From sequence record PP988008.1: a stretch of 51,468 bases of DNA. The stretch is one strand, 5' to 3'. This DNA is from Escherichia phage phiE31-2. Made by a program: the position numbers and the translations under genes. Positions 8,323 through 44,940 of this stretch are shown here, piece after piece (position 1 is the stretch's first letter; each line of letters begins with the position of its first letter). The notes beneath the pieces are model-generated. The model had not been told where the DNA came from. It made no database searches and saw nothing but the letters and a program-made list of their open reading frames with translations.

Positions 8323-8350
8323 TTGACTAAACGCATCAAATAGCTACAAT
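8323..8350 (+). promoter_or_regulatory. sigma70-like promoter for recombination operon
   Basis: TTGACT - 16 nt - TACAAT about 30 nt upstream of exonuclease ATG. Confidence 0.55.
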
Positions 8351-13953: not shown

Positions 13954-15908
13954 TATACAATTTCCCCCAATTGATGATCTGTTAATGCCTTATGCCAGAT
14001 CCTAAAGTTTCTAATGTGTCCAAACAAATGGCGCTCTCCAGTTCCTGTTTGTCCGCCAAACCTGATATTTTTATCTCCTGTTACGCCTATGTAATCGCAG
14101 TATGAATCAGACACTGCTATAGCATTGGTGACAACATGAAATTTGCCATCAGATTTTGCAATGCATCCAAAAGTGGATTTTTTTGCAAACACATCAGATG
14201 CCGCACTATTAATATATGCCCCAGCAGGCGTTGATAAACTCATGTATAATTTTCCACTTCCTCTATTTATTGCCGCAATTGCTGATTGACCAGTATTTGC
14301 AGCAGCTATATCCCAAACACGAGGGGCAGCATTTGGAGCAACATCCCAACACTTACTAACCTCAAGCAAAAAAGTAAACGGCAATTTATATAGGTTGTTT
14401 TTTGTTGGAATGCTAACAAGATCGCTAGCTCTCGTTGTTGGCATTGAAGTTATAATAAATGACGATGCTGTATTTCCAAGTTCAATTTGCGGCGTAGCCA
14501 TCGTTAACGTTGAATCAGAATAAAATGGTTCGTTGTTAATTTTATTAGTCATGTAAAATGCACAATTAACAGTGTCAACATTTTTATTGGCTGTATATGT
14601 CGCTTGATAATACATCCATTCGCCATCCTGTTCCACTTTAGCGGTTATAAGTGAAGTGTCGCCACTTACCGATGCAACCAAAGTATCAAGATCCAAATAA
14701 GAATCAGCAGAAAATGTATCTACTCCATCAATAATTGTAGACACTCGAAGCCTGCATCTTGCTTTAGCACCTTTAACCCTACAAGAAAAGGTGAAACTTT
14801 CACCTGACACCAAAGGGAATCTATCGGCTGTAACAACTCCATGAACGGTATAACCTCCAGTAGTACCAACAATACTTTCTACAGGGGTGACTGTAGCGTA
14901 GTTAAAACCACGATCATCCGTTCCGAAAGTTTTATTTAAAGAAGAATGAATAGTCCAAGAATCTGTTTTATTTGAGTTTCTTAGATAGTTAGTTCTTTGC
15001 CCTTCGATTAAAAGACCTTCTTTTTCAAAACGAGGTTCGTCAATCTCCGCAACAGTCAATACACCTGATTTGTTAATATAAGTTGCTGTTGAAGCGCGTG
15101 AAAATGTAACTACTTTATCTGTTGGCATAGTTATAACATCATTACCAACTGTTATTTTTTTGTAACCAGGCGCAAAGCCTGTAATCATCTCAAGAGAATC
15201 ATTAAACGGTATCCATACATCCGGCAGCGGTTGAAGCACATCTTTGTAAGGTTCTCCAGCTTGTTTTGCATATTCCTCCGCTTGATCGCGCGCAGTTTCA
15301 GCACCTGTCTTTGCGGTGTTAGCTGCATCGCGCGCTGATTCTGCGGCAGCCTTTGCACTTTCCGATCCAGTCTTTGCAGTGTTAGCTGCATCGCGCGCGG
15401 ATTCAGCAGCAGTCTTTGCAGAATCAGCGCCTTTCTTACTGTTTTCTGCATTTGTTGCGCTTATCTTCGCGTTATTCTCGCTAGTTTTAGCGGCATTCTG
15501 GCTTGCTGCGGCCGCAGCAGCATCGCTCTTTACGTCAGCCTGTATCTGTTGAAGTTTATCCCAATCAAATGTTTCGATGATCTCAATGAATCTGGCAAAT
15601 TCAGTTTCTTTACCCTGGTAATATCGCAGTGTTTCAGCGACATCTTGCGCCAGGCCATCAACAGTTATTGAATCATGAAGCATGATCAGATAGTTTGTCT
15701 TTGCTACAACAGCTCCGCCAGTAGTAATGGCGCGAATGCTTGTGTCGCTAATAACCTCAGTGATTACAGCGGCTTGCATTGGATTTGTTAAGAAAAATAT
15801 TGTTGCACCAGGGCGAATGAGTGTTAGCTGTTCGCGCCATTTTGTGCCGTATCCAGTTATATAACCTTGCGCGTCCATTGACGCCTGTCCGGTTCTGTAA
15901 ATTGCCAT
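13953..15908 (-). CDS. lateral tail fiber protein
   Basis: 651 aa from ATG with GGAGAAA RBS; N-terminal fiber-attachment-like region, Ala-rich repeated [15 protein letters not shown] motifs, beta-rich C-terminus. Confidence 0.75.
15290..15435. repeat. imperfect ~63-bp tandem repeats inside lateral tail fiber gene
   Basis: TCTTTGCRGTGTTAGCTGCATCGCGCGC...GATTC..GC.GCAG.CTTTGCA repeated with 63-bp period (Ala-rich protein repeats). Confidence 0.7.
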
Positions 15909-16007
15909 GCGTTTTCTCCAATGTTGCATGTTAATGTCAATGCAGATAATAGCATTTGCTAAGGCAAAAAAAAACCCCGCAATGCGGGGTAAAAGTAGCA
16001 GTGACAT

Positions 16008-16940
16008 TTAGAGAAGAGATTCAGGTTTGTAAACCTTCCTCTCTATCCCTTGCCTGTAATTATCATTAATCGGCATCATAATTTCAAGACCTCTTTCCTC
16101 TGCGGCAATGATAGCGTCACGATCTGTGCTCTTACAGACAACTCGCATTCTTCTGTTGCCTTTATACCTGTAAGCCACAATCTCAATGTTAGTTGCATCA
16201 AAGCAGGCCCAAACCTCTTGACCAGTTGCAAGATGGATGTGTTGCGCATCAATCCAGTCAACGCAAAGATAGATCGCCTTATCTGTGCTTCCTGTTCTCA
16301 CAATCGACCCGCGCGTGTAGTCCTTTGCGAGAAAAGACTTATTACCTTCTTCATCAATGAAAAGCACATTGCACATTTCATCATCAATTTCATCTGAATG
16401 TACCAGGTAACATGGGAGCGCGTGAATGTATCGACCATCTTTTACGCCGCAATCATAATGACTATCTTCAGGCGGGTATATTCCTTCATATGTGCTTAAC
16501 GGCGTGCGATCAAATTTTAGTGTTTTTGACATAACGCGCTCGCAGCATTCATGGCTTGCCTGTTTCCCAAACGAATAACCAGAATCACGAGATACTCGCT
16601 TATTTGACTTGATCCTATAGTCCTGCGGAACTTTTCCAAGAAAGCGGCCCAAAATATTGATCACTTCGCTGTAAGGTTCTCCGGTTAGCTTCATGATCCA
16701 ACCAATTCCAGTATCATTACCGCACACGTTGCAGATCGCACCGCCATCGCCTTTTTTATCGCCAAGTTTATCAGTCCACCTGAAGCGATCCTTTCCGCCG
16801 CAGTGGGGGCAAGATTGATGCTTGCCGTTAAAAACTTCATTTGGAAGACCGCAAATACTTTGTAGCGCCTCACGCCACAATCCTTGCATATATGGGAGAA
16901 CATCTTCCTTTTGATAAACCATAAAGTTTTCGTTATTCAT
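16008..16940 (-). CDS. DNA primase (zinc-binding CHC2-like plus TOPRIM-like)
   Basis: 310 aa from ATG with GAGGTG RBS; CPHCGG...C..C zinc-binding motif; acidic TOPRIM-like segment. Confidence 0.75.
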   Translation of the reverse strand: MNNENFMVYQKEDVLPYMQGLWREALQSICGLPNEVFNGKHQSCPHCGGKDRFRWTDKLGDKKGDGGAICNVCGNDTGIGWIMKLTGEPYSEVINILGRFLGKVPQDYRIKSNKRVSRDSGYSFGKQASHECCERVMSKTLKFDRTPLSTYEGIYPPEDSHYDCGVKDGRYIHALPCYLVHSDEIDDEMCNVLFIDEEGNKSFLAKDYTRGSIVRTGSTDKAIYLCVDWIDAQHIHLATGQEVWACFDATNIEIVAYRYKGNRRMRVVCKSTDRDAIIAAEERGLEIMMPINDNYRQGIERKVYKPESLL

Positions 16941-16952
16941 ATACACCTCAAA

Positions 16953-16988
16953 CAAAAAAGCCTGACAGATGATAACATCATGCCAGGC
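16953..16988 (-). terminator. hairpin with T-run between HTH gene and primase (leftward)
   Basis: GCCTG...CAGGC stem followed by TTTTTTG on minus strand, directly upstream of primase RBS. Confidence 0.4.
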
Positions 16989-16995
16989 ATTGTTT

Positions 16996-17469
16996 TTAGC
17001 AATTAGTGCTTTCAGGTTTATACAGGAATCCGCCAGGTTCATAATCTGACATTCTTACCACTCGCAACATTTCACGCTTATCACATCTCTTTGTGAGCGG
17101 TTTACCATTGGAATCAAATCGCAGATCTGGACGGCAGAATGACGCGCGATAGCCTTGACAACCATATTTCTTGTAATCGTTATGCACCTTTTGAGCGCCA
17201 GCGGCTGAAATCATACCGCGAACACGCCACTGATTTACAGTTTGCTGGCTAACGTTAAGACGTTTTGCCATTGCTGACACACTTCCGTAATACTCAATAA
17301 GGATGTCAAGTCGCGCTTTTAGCCCGGCGCGCACCTCATCTTTTAGAACATAATAACCTGTCGGTCGCTTGCGCTTCTTCTTGTCCTTGCCTCGTCTTGT
17401 TCCGTTATTGCCATTAATTGTGCGCTTGTCAATCTTGCCTGTTGATACTGCGATTCTTTTCTCTTTCAT
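16996..17469 (-). CDS. HTH DNA-binding protein, putative transcriptional regulator
   Basis: 157 aa; basic N-terminus (KDKKKRKR) and helix-turn-helix-like SAMAKRLNVSQQTVNQWRVRG; divergent from helicase gene. Confidence 0.6.
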   Translation of the reverse strand: MKEKRIAVSTGKIDKRTINGNNGTRRGKDKKKRKRPTGYYVLKDEVRAGLKARLDILIEYYGSVSAMAKRLNVSQQTVNQWRVRGMISAAGAQKVHNDYKKYGCQGYRASFCRPDLRFDSNGKPLTKRCDKREMLRVVRMSDYEPGGFLYKPESTNC

Positions 17470-17483
17470 TATTCATTCTCCAA

Positions 17484-17525
17484 TAGCATTTTTTGTTAAA
17501 CGATGATTTAATGATTGTGTATTAT
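17484..17525 (+). promoter_or_regulatory. conserved-motif element in helicase/HTH divergent region
   Basis: TAGCATTTTTTGTTAAAC - 18 nt - TATTAT; on the opposite strand a TTGAGT-16-TATAAT promoter for the HTH gene overlaps. Confidence 0.5.
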
Positions 17526-17558
17526 ACACGCCAAATGGCATTACTCAAAGGTTTTAGA

Positions 17559-19598
17559 ATGATTCCAAACATTGAAAAGCAAATATCAGCACTTGGTGAA
17601 GCGGTAATTAAATCCATTCAGGAGCGATTCACTGTTGGCGAGATTGTGCCTTACCCTTACCAGTGCATTGCATACGCTGAGATCGCAAAGCGTATGAAAA
17701 ATTATGAGCATCCATTCTTTGTTAAAGCGTCCGTATCTGCTGGCAAAACATTGATGTTTGCAATGGTTGCTCACCAGTGCCGGAAAATGGGCTTAAAAAT
17801 GATGGTACTTGCTCGCCAGGCTGAGATTGTGGATCAGGATTCTGAAGAGATAACAAATCTTGGTGTGCCGAACTCCATCTATTGTGCAGGACTGAAGACA
17901 AAAAGCGCATACTTTCCGATCGTTGTTGGTTCTGAGGGAACTGTAGTTAATGGACTTTTTAAAGCGCTTGGCGACTATGTTCCGCACGTTATCGGGATTG
18001 ACGAGTGTCACCAGGTGGATTGGGAAGACCTTGCCGACGCAATAGAGAAAGACGAATCATTTTTACAAATGACTACGAAGAAAGGCGAAAAAGTACCAAA
18101 TCCAGATTATGACATAGCGAGCGATAACGAATGCGAAGAGTTCCTGATTGGTGAGGATGGCTTGCCAATGGAGGGAACAGGTCGCACACAATACACTGTC
18201 ATTATCATGGAAATGATGCGCCGCTGCCGGAAAACATATGGTCATGAACTACGCATATTTGGTATGACTGGTTCTGAGTTTCGCGGCGTAGTCCCGATCC
18301 TGGTAGAAGACAAAAAACAAAAAGGATTTTGGCGTGAACAGGTTACTAATATTGACACCAACTACCTGATCAAATTCGGTTCTGTTGTGCCAACAAATTT
18401 TGGCGACGTTGGCGATCTAGGGTATGACCTTTCAGAGTTTGAGGCATCCAGCGAGGATGGCGTTGCAGACTTTGACGCTAAAACGCTTCGCAGGATGGAA
18501 CAAAAAATTCATGAAGAAGCGACCATGACAAAGAGCATCATGGCGAAAGTTCACGAGATCTGTAAAAACCGCAACGGCGTACTTGTGACATGTGCAGGAG
18601 AAAGGCATTGCAAAGAGGCAGCGGCAGCGTTGCCACTTGGAACTACTTACAGGATCATTACTGGTAAGACTGGCGACAATCAGCGCAAGGAGTGGTTGAG
18701 GGAAGCATACGAAGGGAAGGTAAAATACATCTTCCAGGTTCAGGCGCTAACTACTGGCGTTAACGTGCCGTTTTGGGATACGTCTGTTATTCTGCGTAAG
18801 ATTGGATCGCTAACTTTGCTGATTCAGCTTTTAGGACGAGGAATGCGACTTCTTAAGAAATGGCATAAGGAACAAGGCTTCAAGAAAGATGATCACCTTG
18901 TTATGGATTTTTCAGGAACGATGGACGAGTTAGGTGAGCTTTATTTTGATCCGATACTTGAACAGGCGCAACATCAGAAGCGATTCAGGAACGGTAAAGA
19001 TCCGAAGCCTTGTCCTGTTTGCGGAACTCTTAACAGCTATTACGCTCGTCGTTGTATGCACGTAGACGAAAACGGAAACAGATGTGAGTGGTTCTTTAAA
19101 TTCAGGACATGTGATGATCAGATTGACCCGCGCACTAAAAAGATTATTCAGCGCGGTTGTGGAACGAAAAATGATATTGCGGCCAGGGTATGCAGACATT
19201 GCGACATGTCATTGATTGACCCTAACGAGAAATTAAGCGGAAAGCACTACACAAAAAACGACTGGTTCCAGGTGCAATCTTTCTCGGTTGACATGACGAA
19301 AAACCAGAAAGGGATAATATTTAATTATGAGCTTTCCGATGGCATAGATACTTTCAGAGCGCGGGAAATATTTTTCCCTGAATCAGAAAGCCAGATTTGC
19401 CGCGCAAAATGGAGAAATGTTGCTCTTAAGCACATACCGGATCGCCGTATTGCTGGCATGGTGGCGAGCTATCGTAATGCACGAAAAATAATGCAATATG
19501 TGAATCACATCATGCCTCCATCGCGTGTTACTCACAGAAAGACTAGTAAGGGAGAAGATAATTTGTACAAGAAGGACTTTAATTATGGCAATGACTGA
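17559..19598 (+). CDS. DNA helicase (superfamily 2, DEAD/DEAH-like)
   Basis: Walker A SAGKT, motif II DECH, C-terminal Zn-ribbon-like CxxC pairs; start uncertain (ATG 17559 chosen downstream of promoter-like element, alternatives 17511/17535). Confidence 0.8.
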   Translation: MIPNIEKQISALGEAVIKSIQERFTVGEIVPYPYQCIAYAEIAKRMKNYEHPFFVKASVSAGKTLMFAMVAHQCRKMGLKMMVLARQAEIVDQDSEEITNLGVPNSIYCAGLKTKSAYFPIVVGSEGTVVNGLFKALGDYVPHVIGIDECHQVDWEDLADAIEKDESFLQMTTKKGEKVPNPDYDIASDNECEEFLIGEDGLPMEGTGRTQYTVIIMEMMRRCRKTYGHELRIFGMTGSEFRGVVPILVEDKKQKGFWREQVTNIDTNYLIKFGSVVPTNFGDVGDLGYDLSEFEASSEDGVADFDAKTLRRMEQKIHEEATMTKSIMAKVHEICKNRNGVLVTCAGERHCKEAAAALPLGTTYRIITGKTGDNQRKEWLREAYEGKVKYIFQVQALTTGVNVPFWDTSVILRKIGSLTLLIQLLGRGMRLLKKWHKEQGFKKDDHLVMDFSGTMDELGELYFDPILEQAQHQKRFRNGKDPKPCPVCGTLNSYYARRCMHVDENGNRCEWFFKFRTCDDQIDPRTKKIIQRGCGTKNDIAARVCRHCDMSLIDPNEKLSGKHYTKNDWFQVQSFSVDMTKNQKGIIFNYELSDGIDTFRAREIFFPESESQICRAKWRNVALKHIPDRRIAGMVASYRNARKIMQYVNHIMPPSRVTHRKTSKGEDNLYKKDFNYGND

Positions 19599-20784: not shown

Positions 20785-21024
20785 ATGCAAAAAGAAAGAA
20801 GCGTTTATTTAAATGAAACTGGAGAATGGTTGTTATTTCGCGCTATGGTTTGCGATGCGCTTGATAAAAACGATTTCATAAAACCGCTATTATGTTGCGA
20901 TCCGTGGGAGTTTACAAGCGCGCTTGACATGAGCTTTGAGGAAACAAGAAAGCTACCGCTTGAAAAATGGCATGAGCAGATCTGTAAAGACTTGCAAGAG
21001 TTTTACGAATCCGCGTCAAAATAG
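20785..21024 (+). CDS. hypothetical protein
   Basis: 79 aa from ATG after ACGGAG RBS; stop TAG embedded in conserved motif. Confidence 0.5.
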   Translation: MQKERSVYLNETGEWLLFRAMVCDALDKNDFIKPLLCCDPWEFTSALDMSFEETRKLPLEKWHEQICKDLQEFYESASK

Positions 21025-21064
21025 CACTTTTTGTTAAAACGCCCGGCCTTGTGTCGGGCATAAT
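21022..21064 (+). promoter_or_regulatory. conserved-motif promoter-like element
   Basis: Identical 19-mer - 18 nt (GCCCG/CGGGC inverted repeat) - CATAAT. Confidence 0.55.
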
Positions 21065-21594: not shown

Positions 21595-21606
21595 GGAGAA
21601 TTTTTG

Positions 21607-22722
21607 ATGAAGCAAATCAAAATCACAGATGAACAATTTATCAATGAGCGCAAGCAGGGAAAGACATATAAGCAGATCGCTAATGAGTATGGTATGAACG
21701 TTCGCAGCATTGAGCGACGCGCGGCACGATTAGCAAAGCAAGGTAAAGTTACAACCATCGGATCACCTGGTTTTGGTGTTACTGGAGAATCAAAGCTAAT
21801 TGATAAAGATGGCAATGTGGTTATGACATGGATTAAGACAAGTAAGGACCGCGAACAGTTAGAAGCATTAATGCAGGCCGCTATGGATGCATTTAGCGAA
21901 GAAGTTCCTCGACTTGATCCACAGCCAGAATCACAAAAGGATTATAGCGAGACGTTATCACTGTATCCGATCTTTGACATGCACTTGGGAGCAATGGCGC
22001 ATAAGCATGAATGCGGCGAGAATTGGGATACAGCAACAGCAGAGCGCGTAATGAATAATTTCATTGATTATTCCATCCAGTGCGCGCCGGATAGTGAAAA
22101 GGCTGTTTTACTGATTGGTGGTGACATGCTTCACAGCGACGGACTGGAGGCGGTGACACCTGCAAGCGGTCACGTATTGGATCAAGATAGTCGATATGCA
22201 AAACTTGTTTATGTTGCCATCCGGTCAGTGCGTCGAGCAATTACAAAGCTGTTATCAAAACACAAAAACGTCGAGATTCAGATCATTGAAGGCAACCACG
22301 ACCAAAGCGGCATGATCTGGTTGCGCGCAGCAATGGCGGCAGCATATGAGAATGAGCCACGAGTGCATGTTGATGTTTCTCCGCGAGTAGTTCATCACAC
22401 ACAATATGGCAAAACATTCCTGGCATACCATCACGGGCACACTATCCGCAAGCCTGAAACATTGCTCATGATGTGCGCGGCAGACTGGCGCGAAGACTTC
22501 GGCAATTCAAAAATGATGTATGCTCACGTAGGGCACTGGCATCATCAAACAGTAACTGAAACAAGCCTGGGCATTGTTGAAGTGCATAGCACTATGGCGG
22601 CAAAAGATGCATATGCGGCGCGCGGTGGGTGGCGCTCTCGTCGCCGTGCGGCTGTTATTGTTTACGATAAAGAATACGGAGAAGTCGGGCGATTTATGCA
22701 TTATCCTGAAATGGCTGGTTGA
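21607..22722 (+). CDS. HTH domain fused to calcineurin-like metallophosphoesterase
   Basis: ATG after AAGGAG; N-terminal HTH-like YKQIANEYGMNVRSIERRA; phosphoesterase motifs DMH, GGDMLH, GNHD, GHWHH in order. Confidence 0.65.
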   Translation: MKQIKITDEQFINERKQGKTYKQIANEYGMNVRSIERRAARLAKQGKVTTIGSPGFGVTGESKLIDKDGNVVMTWIKTSKDREQLEALMQAAMDAFSEEVPRLDPQPESQKDYSETLSLYPIFDMHLGAMAHKHECGENWDTATAERVMNNFIDYSIQCAPDSEKAVLLIGGDMLHSDGLEAVTPASGHVLDQDSRYAKLVYVAIRSVRRAITKLLSKHKNVEIQIIEGNHDQSGMIWLRAAMAAAYENEPRVHVDVSPRVVHHTQYGKTFLAYHHGHTIRKPETLLMMCAADWREDFGNSKMMYAHVGHWHHQTVTETSLGIVEVHSTMAAKDAYAARGGWRSRRRAAVIVYDKEYGEVGRFMHYPEMAG

Positions 22723-30645: not shown

Positions 30646-30674
30646 TTGACATGTAGGAAAGGCAAGGCAATAAT
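30646..30674 (+). promoter_or_regulatory. sigma70-like rightward early promoter
   Basis: TTGACA - 17 nt - AATAAT upstream of first rightward early gene. Confidence 0.5.
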
Positions 30675-32892: not shown

Positions 32893-32893
32893 A

Positions 32894-32935
32894 TAGCACG
32901 AATTGTTAAAACTCAAATGTGGGGCCAGGTATAAT
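32894..32935 (+). promoter_or_regulatory. conserved-motif promoter-like element (variant)
   Basis: TAGCACGAATTGTTAAAAC - 17 nt - TATAAT. Confidence 0.5.
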
Positions 32936-32965
32936 GGCCTCACTTTCAACGAAGGGGATAAAACG

Positions 32966-33955: not shown

Positions 33956-34113
33956 CCTGGTTACTTTTAATCTTTGTCACAAGTTACAACTCCGCCGCTA
34001 TTGAATCGCAAGAGTTCTACGGAGAATCAAGATGCCAGGAAGCACGAAAACAAGTTGTTCTCCACATGTCAGATAGCGGGAAAGATGTAACAGCGTTATG
34101 CGTTCGTAAGTAG
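33952..34113 (+). CDS. possible small membrane protein
   Basis: 53-aa ORF; ATG overlaps upstream stop (ATGA); hydrophobic N-terminus; stop TAG embedded in conserved motif. Confidence 0.35.
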   Translation: MTWLLLIFVTSYNSAAIESQEFYGESRCQEARKQVVLHMSDSGKDVTALCVRK

Positions 34114-34153
34114 CACTTTTTGCAAAAACACATTATCGGGCTTGCGGTATAGT
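34111..34153 (+). promoter_or_regulatory. conserved-motif promoter-like element (variant)
   Basis: TAGCACTTTTTGCAAAAAC - 18 nt - TATAGT. Confidence 0.5.
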
Positions 34154-34184
34154 AAGCCCATCGACAACAAACGAGGATTAAATC

Positions 34185-35900: not shown

Positions 35901-36076
35901 AAAGAGTAATTATCATTTTTATTGCCGTTATCGCTGGTTGTTACCTGGCTTATAATTATAGCGGTATTGTTGAGTCAATCGGCGGGTTGATTATCTTCAT
36001 GGCTGGTGGATATGCTGGCTATTGTGATGGATTCGAAAACGGAAAGCGTTACATGCTGACTGGAAAAAAGAAGTAA
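35897..36076 (+). CDS. small membrane protein
   Basis: 59 aa, two hydrophobic helices; ATGA overlap with upstream gene. Confidence 0.45.
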   Translation: MKRVIIIFIAVIAGCYLAYNYSGIVESIGGLIIFMAGGYAGYCDGFENGKRYMLTGKKK

Positions 36077-36118: not shown

Positions 36119-36406
36119 ATGGCTAAAAGCAATCGCAAAATGTTGATTAACGCATTCGAAAAGGCAGCGCGTGAGCGTGGTTGGAATGACTCATTCCACA
36201 CAGCAAACTGTATCCGCCGTTACGGATTCAAGAATTGCCGATCATGGGCGCGTGAAATGGCTTCATGGTATGATCTTGATGCGCATTACCTTGATATGGA
36301 TTGCGCCCTGGTTGAAATGATTGAGCAGGCAGCATTAGAGGATCGACCATTAACGCAATCTGATTTTGACGATTTTGTGCGCGATGAAATTTATTATATG
36401 AGCTAA
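36119..36406 (+). CDS. hypothetical protein
   Basis: 95 aa with AAAGGAGG RBS. Confidence 0.5.
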   Translation: MAKSNRKMLINAFEKAARERGWNDSFHTANCIRRYGFKNCRSWAREMASWYDLDAHYLDMDCALVEMIEQAALEDRPLTQSDFDDFVRDEIYYMS

Positions 36407-36449
36407 TAGCACTTTTTGTTAAAACTTCCGCGAGGGCATTTGTTAAAGT
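36407..36449 (+). promoter_or_regulatory. conserved-motif promoter-like element
   Basis: TAGCACTTTTTGTTAAAAC - 18 nt - TAAAGT. Confidence 0.45.
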
Positions 36450-36481
36450 GTCCTCATTGAAGCGAAACAGAGGAAATAAAA

Positions 36482-36694
36482 ATGAAAATTCGAATCACCA
36501 GGGTTGACATTGACCGCAACGACGGAAGCATTACCCTTGAGCAATGCGGGTTCAAAGTTGGTGACATTGTAGAGGTTGACGGATTCTTTCGCGATGGTTC
36601 TTACTGTGTGTTAGCAATCCGCAACACAGAAGAAATTCGAATCGGTGATAACATCGGCGTAAACCATGACGAATGCGAGGTAGTAGAAGAATGA
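36482..36694 (+). CDS. hypothetical protein
   Basis: 70 aa with AGAGGAAA RBS downstream of promoter-like motif. Confidence 0.5.
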   Translation: MKIRITRVDIDRNDGSITLEQCGFKVGDIVEVDGFFRDGSYCVLAIRNTEEIRIGDNIGVNHDECEVVEE

Positions 36695-37465: not shown

Positions 37466-37695
37466 TGTTTGGAATGAATGAGGCGCAATTCAACGCTGCA
37501 AAACGCCAGGCTAAGAAGTGCGGCGAGGCAATGAAGGCGGATGTTGAAAAGCGCGGGAAGTATGTTGATGAAGTTATGAAGGGCATTATTGCCGAACATT
37601 ATCAGCCAGTTGCGCCAATGCTGACAATTACCCAATTCATCTGGTTGTGTGGTTATCTTCGTGGGAGATGGGGAAACGCATTTGACCGCGAATGA
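37465..37695 (+). CDS. hypothetical protein
   Basis: 76 aa ORF. Confidence 0.5.
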   Translation: MFGMNEAQFNAAKRQAKKCGEAMKADVEKRGKYVDEVMKGIIAEHYQPVAPMLTITQFIWLCGYLRGRWGNAFDRE

Positions 37696-37724
37696 TTGAC
37701 AACGATTTCCTGATTGGTTAGCAT
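37696..37724 (+). promoter_or_regulatory. sigma70-like promoter
   Basis: TTGACA - 17 nt - TAGCAT; followed ~60 nt later by hairpin and T-run. Confidence 0.45.
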
Positions 37725-44893: not shown

Positions 44894-44940
44894 TCATTGG
44901 GGCGTTACATACTAACGGCCTTTATATATGGAGGAAGAAA

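Follow-up and report, generated by a model that had tools for sequence, protein, structure and literature searches.

A family-wide divergent control region of replication genes in T1-like phages, with a predicted shared −10 region and a predicted promoter nested in a terminator

Organization of the Interval

The DNA considered here is the sequence of Escherichia phage phiE31-2 (record PP988008.1), and the window denotes this whole stretch of 51,468 nucleotides (nt). The subject is the interval of the window between a DNA primase gene and a DNA helicase gene, which contains the gene of a helix-turn-helix (HTH) regulator, its promoter and terminator, and two copies of a direct repeat (DR) known from related phages. 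The window is that of a T1-like phage of the genus Hanrivervirus (Drexlerviridae, Tempevirinae). The interval and its flanks are 95–99% identical to 62 phage records; among those with annotation, Escherichia phage egaa and Shigella phage pSf-1, both of this genus, come nearest.

The primase gene (16008–16940, minus strand) encodes 310 amino acids with a Zn-ribbon primase domain, is called primase in the annotation of relatives, and has the Shine-Dalgarno sequence GAGGTG (complement of 16944–16949). The regulator gene (16996–17469, minus strand), with the Shine-Dalgarno sequence GGAG (complement of 17478–17481), encodes a Cro-like HTH protein of 157 amino acids. On the plus strand, the gene of a superfamily-2 DNA helicase of 679 amino acids (17559–19598) is preceded by the Shine-Dalgarno sequence AAAGG (17547–17551) and followed by the VRR-NUC and Dam genes. 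The helicase gene starts at 17559, and not at 17560, where an earlier reading of the window from its letters, referred to below as the sequence-only reading, had ended the interval.

Single elements of this interval are already annotated in the relatives T1 and TLS. The GenBank record of T1 has a promoter for the transcriptional regulator at 36483–36511 and a rho-independent terminator at 35930–35969, between the regulator and the primase. For the homologous locus of TLS, Table S1 of PMC11447400 gives a sigma70-like promoter (P57), a repeat facing the helicase (DR11), a repeat facing the primase (DR10) and a terminator (T57), where P57 is one of just three sigma70-like intergenic promoters in that phage (PMC11447400). 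Judged from its sequence, the interval is a family-wide divergent control region of the replication genes of T1-like phages, of a known kind. A search of the whole window with Rfam at gathering thresholds gave no match, which indicates that it holds no known RNA element.

The interval was compared among eleven genomes, namely those of the window, T1, Klebsiella phage 1513, F20, Jk06, phSE-2, ElisaCorrea, tonn, K50_evo17, LF82-11 and P818. They belong to Tempevirinae, Tunavirinae, Rogunavirinae, Webervirus, Nouzillyvirus and unclassified lineages, and their regulator proteins are 55–80% identical to that of the window. Ten of the eleven, from several genera, were aligned using MAFFT (alignment A2, mean identity 65%). 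The twelfth genome was the most divergent relative found, the Logan contig ERR14783479_735 (L013), at 46% identity.

Predicted Divergent Promoters on a Common −10 Region

In the 5′ leader of the helicase gene, the −35 hexamer TTGAGT (17543–17548, complement), which adjoins the helicase Shine-Dalgarno sequence, and the −10 hexamer TATAAT (17521–17526, complement) form a leftward promoter candidate for the regulator gene, with a predicted start at about 17514–17515. The sequence-only reading had assigned the same hexamers, 16 base pairs (bp) apart, to the HTH gene, and they are present at that place. With a score of 10/12, this is the best promoter-like match in the region of 15500–19000, and its hexamers and spacer are of the sigma70 type (16–18 bp). 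Such matches occur at chance level, both locally (7 observed vs 6.8 ± 3.0 in shuffled sequences) and in the whole window (16 vs 17.6). A hexamer match alone therefore proves nothing, and the case for the leftward promoter rests on conservation.

A leftward −35-like hexamer (TTGAGT, TTGAAT, TTGTCA, TTGACT, TTGATG, TTAACG, TTAAAA or TTAATG) lies 16–17 nt beyond the sequence TAT(T/G)ATA in all eleven genomes. The only invariant blocks in alignment A2 are the DR and TATnATA (TAT(T)ATA, window 17520–17526), with a mean identity of 65% elsewhere. The layout is retained even in L013, where TTGAAT-17-TATGCT lies opposite a degenerate repeat. The conserved positions of the hexamers amid diverging sequence indicate that the leftward promoter, with its predicted start, is probably real.

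The putative rightward promoter of the helicase gene has the −10 hexamer TATTAT (17520–17525, plus strand) in columns that are invariant in alignment A2, and its start is predicted at about 17532–17533. This hexamer sits at the offset from the DR where nearly all of the DR cassettes described below have TAnnnT or CAnnnT. The leftward TATAAT and the rightward TATTAT lie in one invariant TATTATA (17520–17526), where they are offset by 1 nt and have five of the six base pairs in common. The predicted divergent starts are about 18 bp apart (17532/33 vs 17514/15), which is the geometry of a symmetric bidirectional promoter. In promoters of this class, a distance of 18 bp between the starts is the commonest, and 10 and 23 bp are also common (PMC12825309). 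At such a promoter, RNA polymerase can bind in one orientation or the other but not in both, and experiments showed that an arm is repressed via polymerase competition when its partner is strongly activated, including activation from a CRP site at −40.5 (PMC12825309).

According to the sequence-only reading, the motif beside the helicase gene overlapped the leftward promoter, so that a protein bound there could regulate both directions. The motif lies at about +14 to +33 of the regulator transcript, and the overlap is found instead between the −10 hexamers of the two promoters. Regulation of both directions by a protein at the motif is reasonable, since the promoters share a −10 region and a precedent exists (PMC12825309); candidates for this protein are the HTH protein, another phage protein or a host factor.

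Elsewhere in the window, intergenic sigma70-like sites with scores of at least 10/12 are located at 8323–8350 (plus), 30646–30674 (plus), 37598–37627 (minus) and 37696–37724 (plus). The site at 30646 is TTGACA-17-AATAAT and lies between two divergent blocks of repeat promoters. These sites may match the host-type promoters P01 and P51 of TLS.

The Direct Repeat and the Anatomy of Its Predicted Promoters

The conserved rightward element by the helicase gene, as the sequence-only reading had called it, is a DR of the TLS type. This copy, ATAGCATTTTTTGTTAAAC (17483–17501, plus strand), is centered at about −41 relative to the predicted rightward start, lies 76 nt 5′ of the helicase ATG, and has two mismatches at the 15 specified positions of the 21-nt consensus aaATAGCACnnnTTGnTAAAA. 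The copy of the primase promoter, AAAGCACTAATTGCTAAAA (17012→16994, minus strand), lies 72 nt 5′ of the primase ATG and has one mismatch. Both are oriented with the downstream gene and near the TLS spacing of about 76 nt. In all eleven genomes, the helicase DR abuts the Shine-Dalgarno sequence of the regulator, and TAT(T/G)ATA follows 18–19 nt further on.

The consensus was described in TLS, where 18 intergenic copies run along the direction of transcription about 76 nt 5′ of start codons (PMC11447400), and the DR is also present in T1, Rtp and Rogue1 (German, Kropinski, Misra et al. 2024, PMC11447400). Its authors left the function undecided among a stoperator, an enhancer site and an UP element (PMC11447400), and their paper was the only one found in the literature search to mention the motif. 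In the window, ATAGCACnnnTTGnTAAAA has 18 copies with at most two mismatches and about 21 with at most three, where shuffled sequences give about 2 at three mismatches. The DR is found in phages of Escherichia, Klebsiella, Salmonella and Vibrio alike, and its matches in IMG/VR are almost entirely on contigs of 46–53 kb.

A sample of 49 DR cassettes was taken from the window, T1 and Klebsiella phage 1513. The order of elements in a cassette is the DR, a spacer of 18–19 nt, a hexamer that keeps A2 and T6 (TAnnnT or CAnnnT), usually a ATCGAAACGA-like leader, GAGGA and the ATG. Between the start of the DR and the ATG there are mostly 71–76 nt, within a range of 62–111 nt. The DR forms a partial dyad, TAGCA-N5-TGYTA, whose positions 2/16, 3/15, 5/13 and 6/12 are symmetric in 44–49 of the 49 copies. 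If the predicted start is taken as 7 nt past the hexamer, the dyad center is at −42 (−41 for the helicase). No rightward sigma70 −35 hexamer at a usable spacing was found in six of the eleven genomes, and the other five have weak candidates of 9/12, some of which use another −10 hexamer. With a dyad centered near −42 and no −35, the DR cassette looks like a promoter that depends on a class II activator, as far as its predicted start can be trusted.

Two other assignments of the DR were rejected, and a third does not fit. TTGYTA within the DR cannot serve as the −35, for its spacer to the −10 would be 22 bp, too far for sigma70. If TGnTAAAAC were an extended −10, the RNA would have the hairpin at its 5′ end; this reading was dropped because the downstream hexamer always keeps A2 and T6, whereas position −7 is mostly C and is T in one of the 49 copies. 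The third, an UP element, has the A/T-rich consensus nnAAAWWTWTTTTnnnAAAnnn at −59 to −38; the DR has an invariant AGCAC core and occupies −50 to −32.

These features bear directly on the possibility that the host alone reads the DR. The DR would then be a composite of UP-like and displaced −35-like elements, contacted by the C-terminal domain of the alpha subunit (alpha-CTD) and by sigma region 4, or the site of a conserved host protein such as Lrp; both arms would be constitutive from injection, which would leave another role to the Cro-like protein. The identity of the DR in phages of the four host genera fits a reader that is conserved across hosts, and host-only reading permits immediate early transcription. 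The DR contains TTGYTA as well as T- and A-tracts, and its likeness to UP elements was noted by the TLS authors (PMC11447400). In most copies, 11–13 of the 15 positions 2–16 agree with the E. coli Lrp consensus yAGhAwATTwTdCTr, where about 6 are expected; this is a post hoc comparison for one of many possible factors, and neither the invariant C7 nor the GAA variants agree with the consensus. The invariant G/C core, AGCAC, does not resemble an A/T-rich UP element, and TTGYTA, at 22 bp from the −10, is too distant for sigma70. The DR is also about 8 bp nearer to the start than the UP consensus position, which is reportedly due to Estrem et al. Host-only recognition is thus possible but doubtful.

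Good antisense copies of the DR are present inside the structural-gene region, at 44894–44876 (minus) and 48653–48635 (minus) in the window and at 15086 (minus) and 18850 (minus) in T1 (L002). They are without a convincing −10 or a downstream open reading frame, and may be binding sites without promoter function or may drive antisense RNAs. In L013 (9918–10001 and 10414–10486), the DRs are fewer and degenerate, e.g., TCCGCACTTTTTGCTAAAC, and the bidirectional promoter is kept. The requirements of the repeat system could naturally be studied by comparison with this genome.

The Probable Regulator Terminator and the Predicted Nested Primase Promoter

The regulator gene is followed, 8 nt past its stop codon, by the stem-loop GCCTGGCATGATG-TTAT-CATCTGTCAGGC (16988→16960, minus strand) of 12 pairs with one bulge, and by the U-tract TTTTTTGTTT (16959→16950, minus strand), which is of the form U6GU3. 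The minimum free energy (MFE) of the hairpin is −22.8 kcal/mol, its z score in RNA folding is −4.6, and none of 200 shuffled sequences was as stable. This result bears out the hairpin with a T-run that the sequence-only reading had placed at 16953–16988. A simple terminator scan missed it because of the bulged stem, and it was called by thermodynamic folding. A hairpin with T5-6 is present in ten of the eleven genomes, with unrelated stems and z scores of −3.0 to −5.6; each was folded independently against shuffled sequences, since the stem and loop lengths differ and are not alignable column by column. The hairpin at 16988–16950 is very probably a real terminator of the regulator mRNA, and a regulator transcript from upstream would form the full hairpin and the U-tract.

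The predicted promoter of the primase gene is nested within this terminator. A −10-like TATCAT (16974→16969, minus strand) lies 19 nt past the second DR, in the loop and the 3′ arm of the hairpin, and the predicted start at about 16963/16962 falls within the 3′ arm. The DR overlaps the last codons of the regulator gene, whose TAA stop is part of the TAAAA of the DR. The nesting is kept in ten of the eleven genomes, with the hexamers TAACAT, TATCAT, TATTAT, TAATAT, CATTAT or CATAAT (A2, T6) at the same offset. The DR upstream of the primase is degenerate and correctly spaced in Jk06 and LF82-11, and an HNH endonuclease is inserted at the spacer between regulator and primase in P818. The predicted primase transcript would start in the 3′ arm and lack the full hairpin, and therefore it could not terminate there. 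The primase gene thus appears to have its own promoter inside the terminator and would not depend on read-through.

Just past the primase stop codon, the strong terminator-like hairpin ACCCCGCATTGCGGGGT is followed by T9 (15990→15974, minus strand). The primase thus makes up a transcription unit of its own, and no read-through to the fiber gene need be considered. These results modify the proposal that the hairpin after the HTH gene attenuates read-through into the primase and fiber cluster. Its nature as a terminator is very probable, but the primase has a predicted DR promoter of its own (kept in ten of the eleven genomes), and the fiber cluster is separated by the terminator at 15990→15974.

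The regulator stop codon is always inside the primase DR (window 16996–16998; homologous sites L002–L010), as the TAA of TAAAA or, in Webervirus, as the TAG of ATAGCAC. The C-terminal residues of the regulator are therefore partly dictated by a DNA element.

Hairpins are a general property of the DR cassettes. A hairpin that encloses or abuts the −10 is carried by 46 of the 49 cassettes, with a stem sequence that differs between cassettes. The hexamer is enclosed in the loop in 31 of them, e.g., GGGCTT-gcgg-TATAGT-AAGCCC, and the hairpin ends right before the −10 in 15. The mean MFE of the cassettes is −11.6 kcal/mol, compared with −5.6 kcal/mol for dinucleotide shuffles (p = 8e-12) and −5.8 kcal/mol for chimeras made from the 5′ and 3′ halves of different cassettes. 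The sense strand folds better in 35 cassettes and the antisense strand in 14. Examples in the window are located at 21021–21064 (plus), 27128–27085 (minus), 32893–32950 (plus), 34110–34165 (plus) and 36406–36460 (plus), and others in T1 and in Klebsiella phage 1513 (L003). These hairpins may be stabilizers of RNA 3′ ends or terminators for upstream transcripts, or DNA structures that present the −10. All Drexlerviridae tested are unusually sensitive to the DNA intercalator daunorubicin (PMC13250531); a connection of this sensitivity with promoters that contain hairpin-forming repeats is pure speculation.

Given this generality, the hairpin at 16960–16988 might be a cassette hairpin of either kind, an RNA 3′-end stabilizer or a DNA structure presenting the −10, and not mainly a terminator, in which case the regulator and the primase would be co-transcribed. 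The primase hairpin fits the enclosing class. It is followed by T5-6 in ten of the eleven genomes, whereas the other enclosing hairpins are followed by ATCGAAACGA-type leaders, and its stem is longer and more stable. The annotations of T1 and TLS also have a rho-independent terminator at its place. Co-transcription through a mere cassette hairpin is accordingly regarded as quite improbable, and the hairpin is treated below as the regulator terminator.

The Regulator Protein and the Reading of the Repeat

The regulator is predicted to be an all-alpha HTH protein with the Cro fold. Its Pfam scores are just under the cut-offs (YdaS_toxin, 29.8 bits vs 30; P22_Cro, 25.2 vs 30.2), its matches in the PDB using phmmer are the Xfaso1 Cro protein (E = 3e-4) and its hybrid XPH1 (E = 2e-5), and it belongs to phrog_2856 of PHROGs, “transcriptional regulator”. 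The layout consists of an N-terminal basic arm, the HTH core at about residues 44–101, and a C-terminal extension without a match. The gene is found in 842 phage records, essentially all T1-like. A distant homologue, an 80-residue Cro-like repressor in the unrelated Klebsiella phage YX3973, was uninformative.

The best-conserved part of the regulator is not the HTH but the arm, DKRTxNGNNGTxRG, in which D14, R16, N19, G20, N21, N22, R26, G27, D29 and R33 are invariant. The arm (residues 1–40; window 17350–17469, minus strand) is predicted to be disordered, with a predicted local distance difference test score (pLDDT) of about 52. Its codons vary at synonymous sites, which indicates that the constraint acts on the protein. 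A search with the 40-residue arm against 1.8 billion representatives found it only at the N-terminus of the same regulator family and gave no functional hint. The recognition helix, on the other hand, varies among the phages (SQQTVNQW, SNQTVQGW, SIQVVQQW, TRQAVEEW, NLKTVWGW, and CCVRLTNAY in Vibrio phage Vc1), and phages with differing helices, Vc1 included, all use the same DR. A canonical read-out of the DR by helix 3 of the regulator is therefore unlikely, and if the regulator reads the DR, the invariant arm must supply the specificity.

A specific version of the switch proposed below makes the Cro-like protein itself the DR-binding activator. Made early from its host-type promoter, it would bind about 20 DRs at −42, bring RNA polymerase to promoters without a −35, and flip its own shared −10 to the helicase, so that this early-to-middle switch would limit itself. 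The protein is the only one of the locus with a solid DNA-binding fold (Xfaso1 Cro, XPH1, phrog_2856), and its gene is among the very few with a conserved sigma70-type promoter and has DR promoters on both flanks. The gene is core to the family, and the DR is likewise confined to contigs of about 46–53 kb; both being family-wide, their co-occurrence does not discriminate between the hypotheses. The distance of 10 bp between the half-sites of the DR is the one expected of an HTH dimer, and the lambda cI protein at OR2 (−42) is a precedent for an activator at that position. The arm, nearly invariant as protein, could supply a constant specificity.

Against this assignment, the wide variation of the recognition helix has already been described, and a role in DR reading for an arm that is predicted to be disordered and occurs in no other protein context is a guess. 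An activator of phage origin for nearly all early genes would also delay a very fast phage. Other weak candidates for DNA binding are gp070 and gp073 of T1, recorded as HTH-like by HHpred, and a phosphoesterase with an HTH_28-like N-terminus. The SbcD-like phosphoesterase gene of the window (21604–22722, plus strand) has a weak N-terminal HTH_28 match (E = 0.0026), and the homologues of gp070 and gp073 in the window obtained no DNA-binding support in searches. Taken together, the Cro-like protein as the DR reader is a tentative possibility, given the same weight as recognition by the host alone, and the remaining probability falls to another phage protein.

The shared −10 has inverted repeats of its own. 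A 13-bp palindrome, GTGTATTATACAC (17517–17529), surrounds it and is flanked by TAATG...CATTA (17509–17543), and a direct repeat ATGATT-N2-ATGATT is found at 17503–17516. Other lineages have other dyads at the same place, namely AACGTTTAC-N20-GTAAACGTT in T1, TTCGTTTG-N18-CAAACGAA in K50evo17 and GAGTcTATtATAtACTC in tonn. These dyads may be operators or a mere consequence of the promoter symmetry.

If they are operators, the Cro-like protein could be a classical autorepressor, which binds the phage-specific palindrome or its flanking dyad and shuts both arms, with the DR being irrelevant. Proteins of the Cro family typically repress their own divergent region, and the variable recognition helix would be matched by dyads that vary with the lineage (T1, K50evo17, tonn). 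The dyads vary in length and spacing (8 to 29 bp from center to center), however, and not all are compatible with one dimer, and the symmetric −10 by itself imposes part of their symmetry. Throughout the genome, DR cassettes have inverted repeats about their −10, with a sequence that differs by cassette, and these are therefore not specific operators. Autorepression at these dyads is considered unlikely.

A Proposed Switch from the Regulator to the Replication Genes

The results above can be combined as follows. The sequence shows a bidirectional promoter that is conserved, a terminator, and a second promoter nested within the latter; from these it is inferred that DR activation would switch expression from the regulator to the helicase and the primase. 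At the sequence level, the −10 region TATTATA (17520–17526) would serve two divergent promoters. To the left, it would act with the host-type −35 to drive a short monocistronic mRNA for the Cro-like HTH protein, which would end at the intrinsic terminator at 16988–16950. To the right, it would act with the DR in place of a −35 to drive the helicase operon. The second DR and its −10 would form the promoter nested within the terminator loop, whose transcripts, beginning in the 3′ arm, would not be terminated there and would serve to express the primase. Early after injection, the host RNA polymerase would use the arm with a real −35 and make the regulator mRNA. Activation at the DR would then draw the polymerase to the primase promoter in the terminator and, at the shared −10, into the orientation of the helicase. 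With the polymerase able to sit on the shared −10 one way only, this activation would turn the helicase on and the regulator down. The −10 common to both arms, the DR near −42 and the promoter nested in a terminator make up a new, integrated reading, and this combination is favored here with moderate confidence.

Several points weigh against this proposal. The leftward hexamer match, taken alone, has the frequency expected by chance, and the conservation of its −35 may partly reflect the helicase Shine-Dalgarno sequence, as the TT of TTGAGT pairs with the AA of AAAGG on the other strand; the Webervirus −35, TTGTCA, does not touch that sequence. The dyad of the DR is only partial, with position 4/14 symmetric in 21 of the 49 copies and asymmetric flanks. 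The spacer between regulator and primase in L013 is without a convincing terminator. The searchable literature yielded no start, termination or binding data for T1-like phages, and all starts are derived from hexamers. Finally, Warman et al. (PMC12825309) found that the arms compete only under strong activation of one of them, and that binding of a factor downstream is not enough by itself to stop elongation. The switch is therefore not guaranteed.

A more far-reaching form of this proposal would assign almost all non-structural genes to a private promoter class, with no −35, a DR at −42 and a −10 that is mostly placed within or just beside a covarying hairpin. This class would be read by the Cro-like protein via its invariant arm and not via its variable recognition helix, and the accumulating protein would flip the shared −10 from the regulator to the replication genes. 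If true, this would be a minimal early-to-middle switch made by one protein; it is held to be rather unlikely.

T1 is one of the seven classic coliphages, and no other natural region is as compact as this interval for studying the timing of its transcription. Within 90 bp, a repeat-type promoter and a host-type promoter would compete for one −10. The divergent promoter borders on the gene of the likeliest regulator and on a second repeat promoter nested in the terminator of that gene. With the likeness to class II promoters, the repeat is no longer a matter of description alone and gives rise to hypotheses that are testable on a 600-bp fragment. The Drexlerviridae are common as therapeutic and as contaminant phages, and a promoter grammar for them would improve annotation and engineering.

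Comparison with Known Systems

Close counterparts of the DRs are the repeats of TLS, T1, Rtp and Rogue1 (PMC11447400), which have the consensus aaATAGCACnnnTTGnTAAAA and about 18–21 copies per genome. DR11, P57, DR10 and T57 of TLS are the direct homologues of the four elements of the interval. A fixed −10 located 18–19 nt 3′ of the DR, a dyad at −42, a −10 shared with P57, and the enclosure of the −10 of the DR10 promoter by T57 are not part of that description (PMC11447400).

The regulator resembles the Cro proteins of the P22/Xfaso1/N15 group in that its gene lies in a divergent promoter region. It differs from them in an invariant N-terminal basic arm of 38 residues and a C-terminal extension of about 50 residues, neither of which has a structural match, and its Pfam scores are just below the gathering cut-offs. 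In addition, the T1-like phage is virulent and has no repressor partner. The stoperators of mycobacteriophage L5 are, like the DRs, many asymmetric sites of about 13–20 bp that lie along the direction of transcription between genes. The L5 sites are repressor-bound blocks in a temperate phage, whereas each DR is followed by a −10 at a fixed spacing and a leader with a Shine-Dalgarno sequence, which is the anatomy of a promoter.

In the middle promoters of T4, which use the MotA box and AsiA, a phage box replaces the −35 at many pre-replicative promoters and the host sigma70 −10 is kept, as at the DR promoters. The MotA box is centered at −30, unlike the DR at −42. The TGCT core in the DR variant TTGCTAAAA is a superficial likeness, and no homologue of MotA or AsiA was seen, in a comparison made without a test. 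The predicted position of the DR agrees with class II promoters (CRP and FNR at −41.5; lambda cI at OR2 for PRM, −42), in which a site of 15–19 bp at about −41/−42, with half-sites one helical turn apart, replaces the missing −35 and the −10 is ordinary. The DR differs from these sites in its imperfect dyad, its strongly asymmetric flanks, and its occurrence as about 20 near-identical sites per 50-kb genome.

The divergent promoter as a whole resembles the symmetric bidirectional promoters of bacteria (Warman, Grainger et al. 2021; PMC12825309, 2026), such as PacrA/acrR and PsoxS/soxR. In both, one short pseudo-symmetric −10 appears to be used on both strands, with hexamers offset by 1 nt, starts about 18 bp apart, direction-specific elements on each side, and a regulator gene on one arm. 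In the bacterial promoters, an arm can be repressed through an activator site near −40.5 of its partner, by polymerase competition (PMC12825309). In the T1-like region, where the starts are predicted, one arm is without a −35 and carries the 19-nt repeat of the phage family, and the arrangement is found on a virulent phage and is invariant across its virus family.

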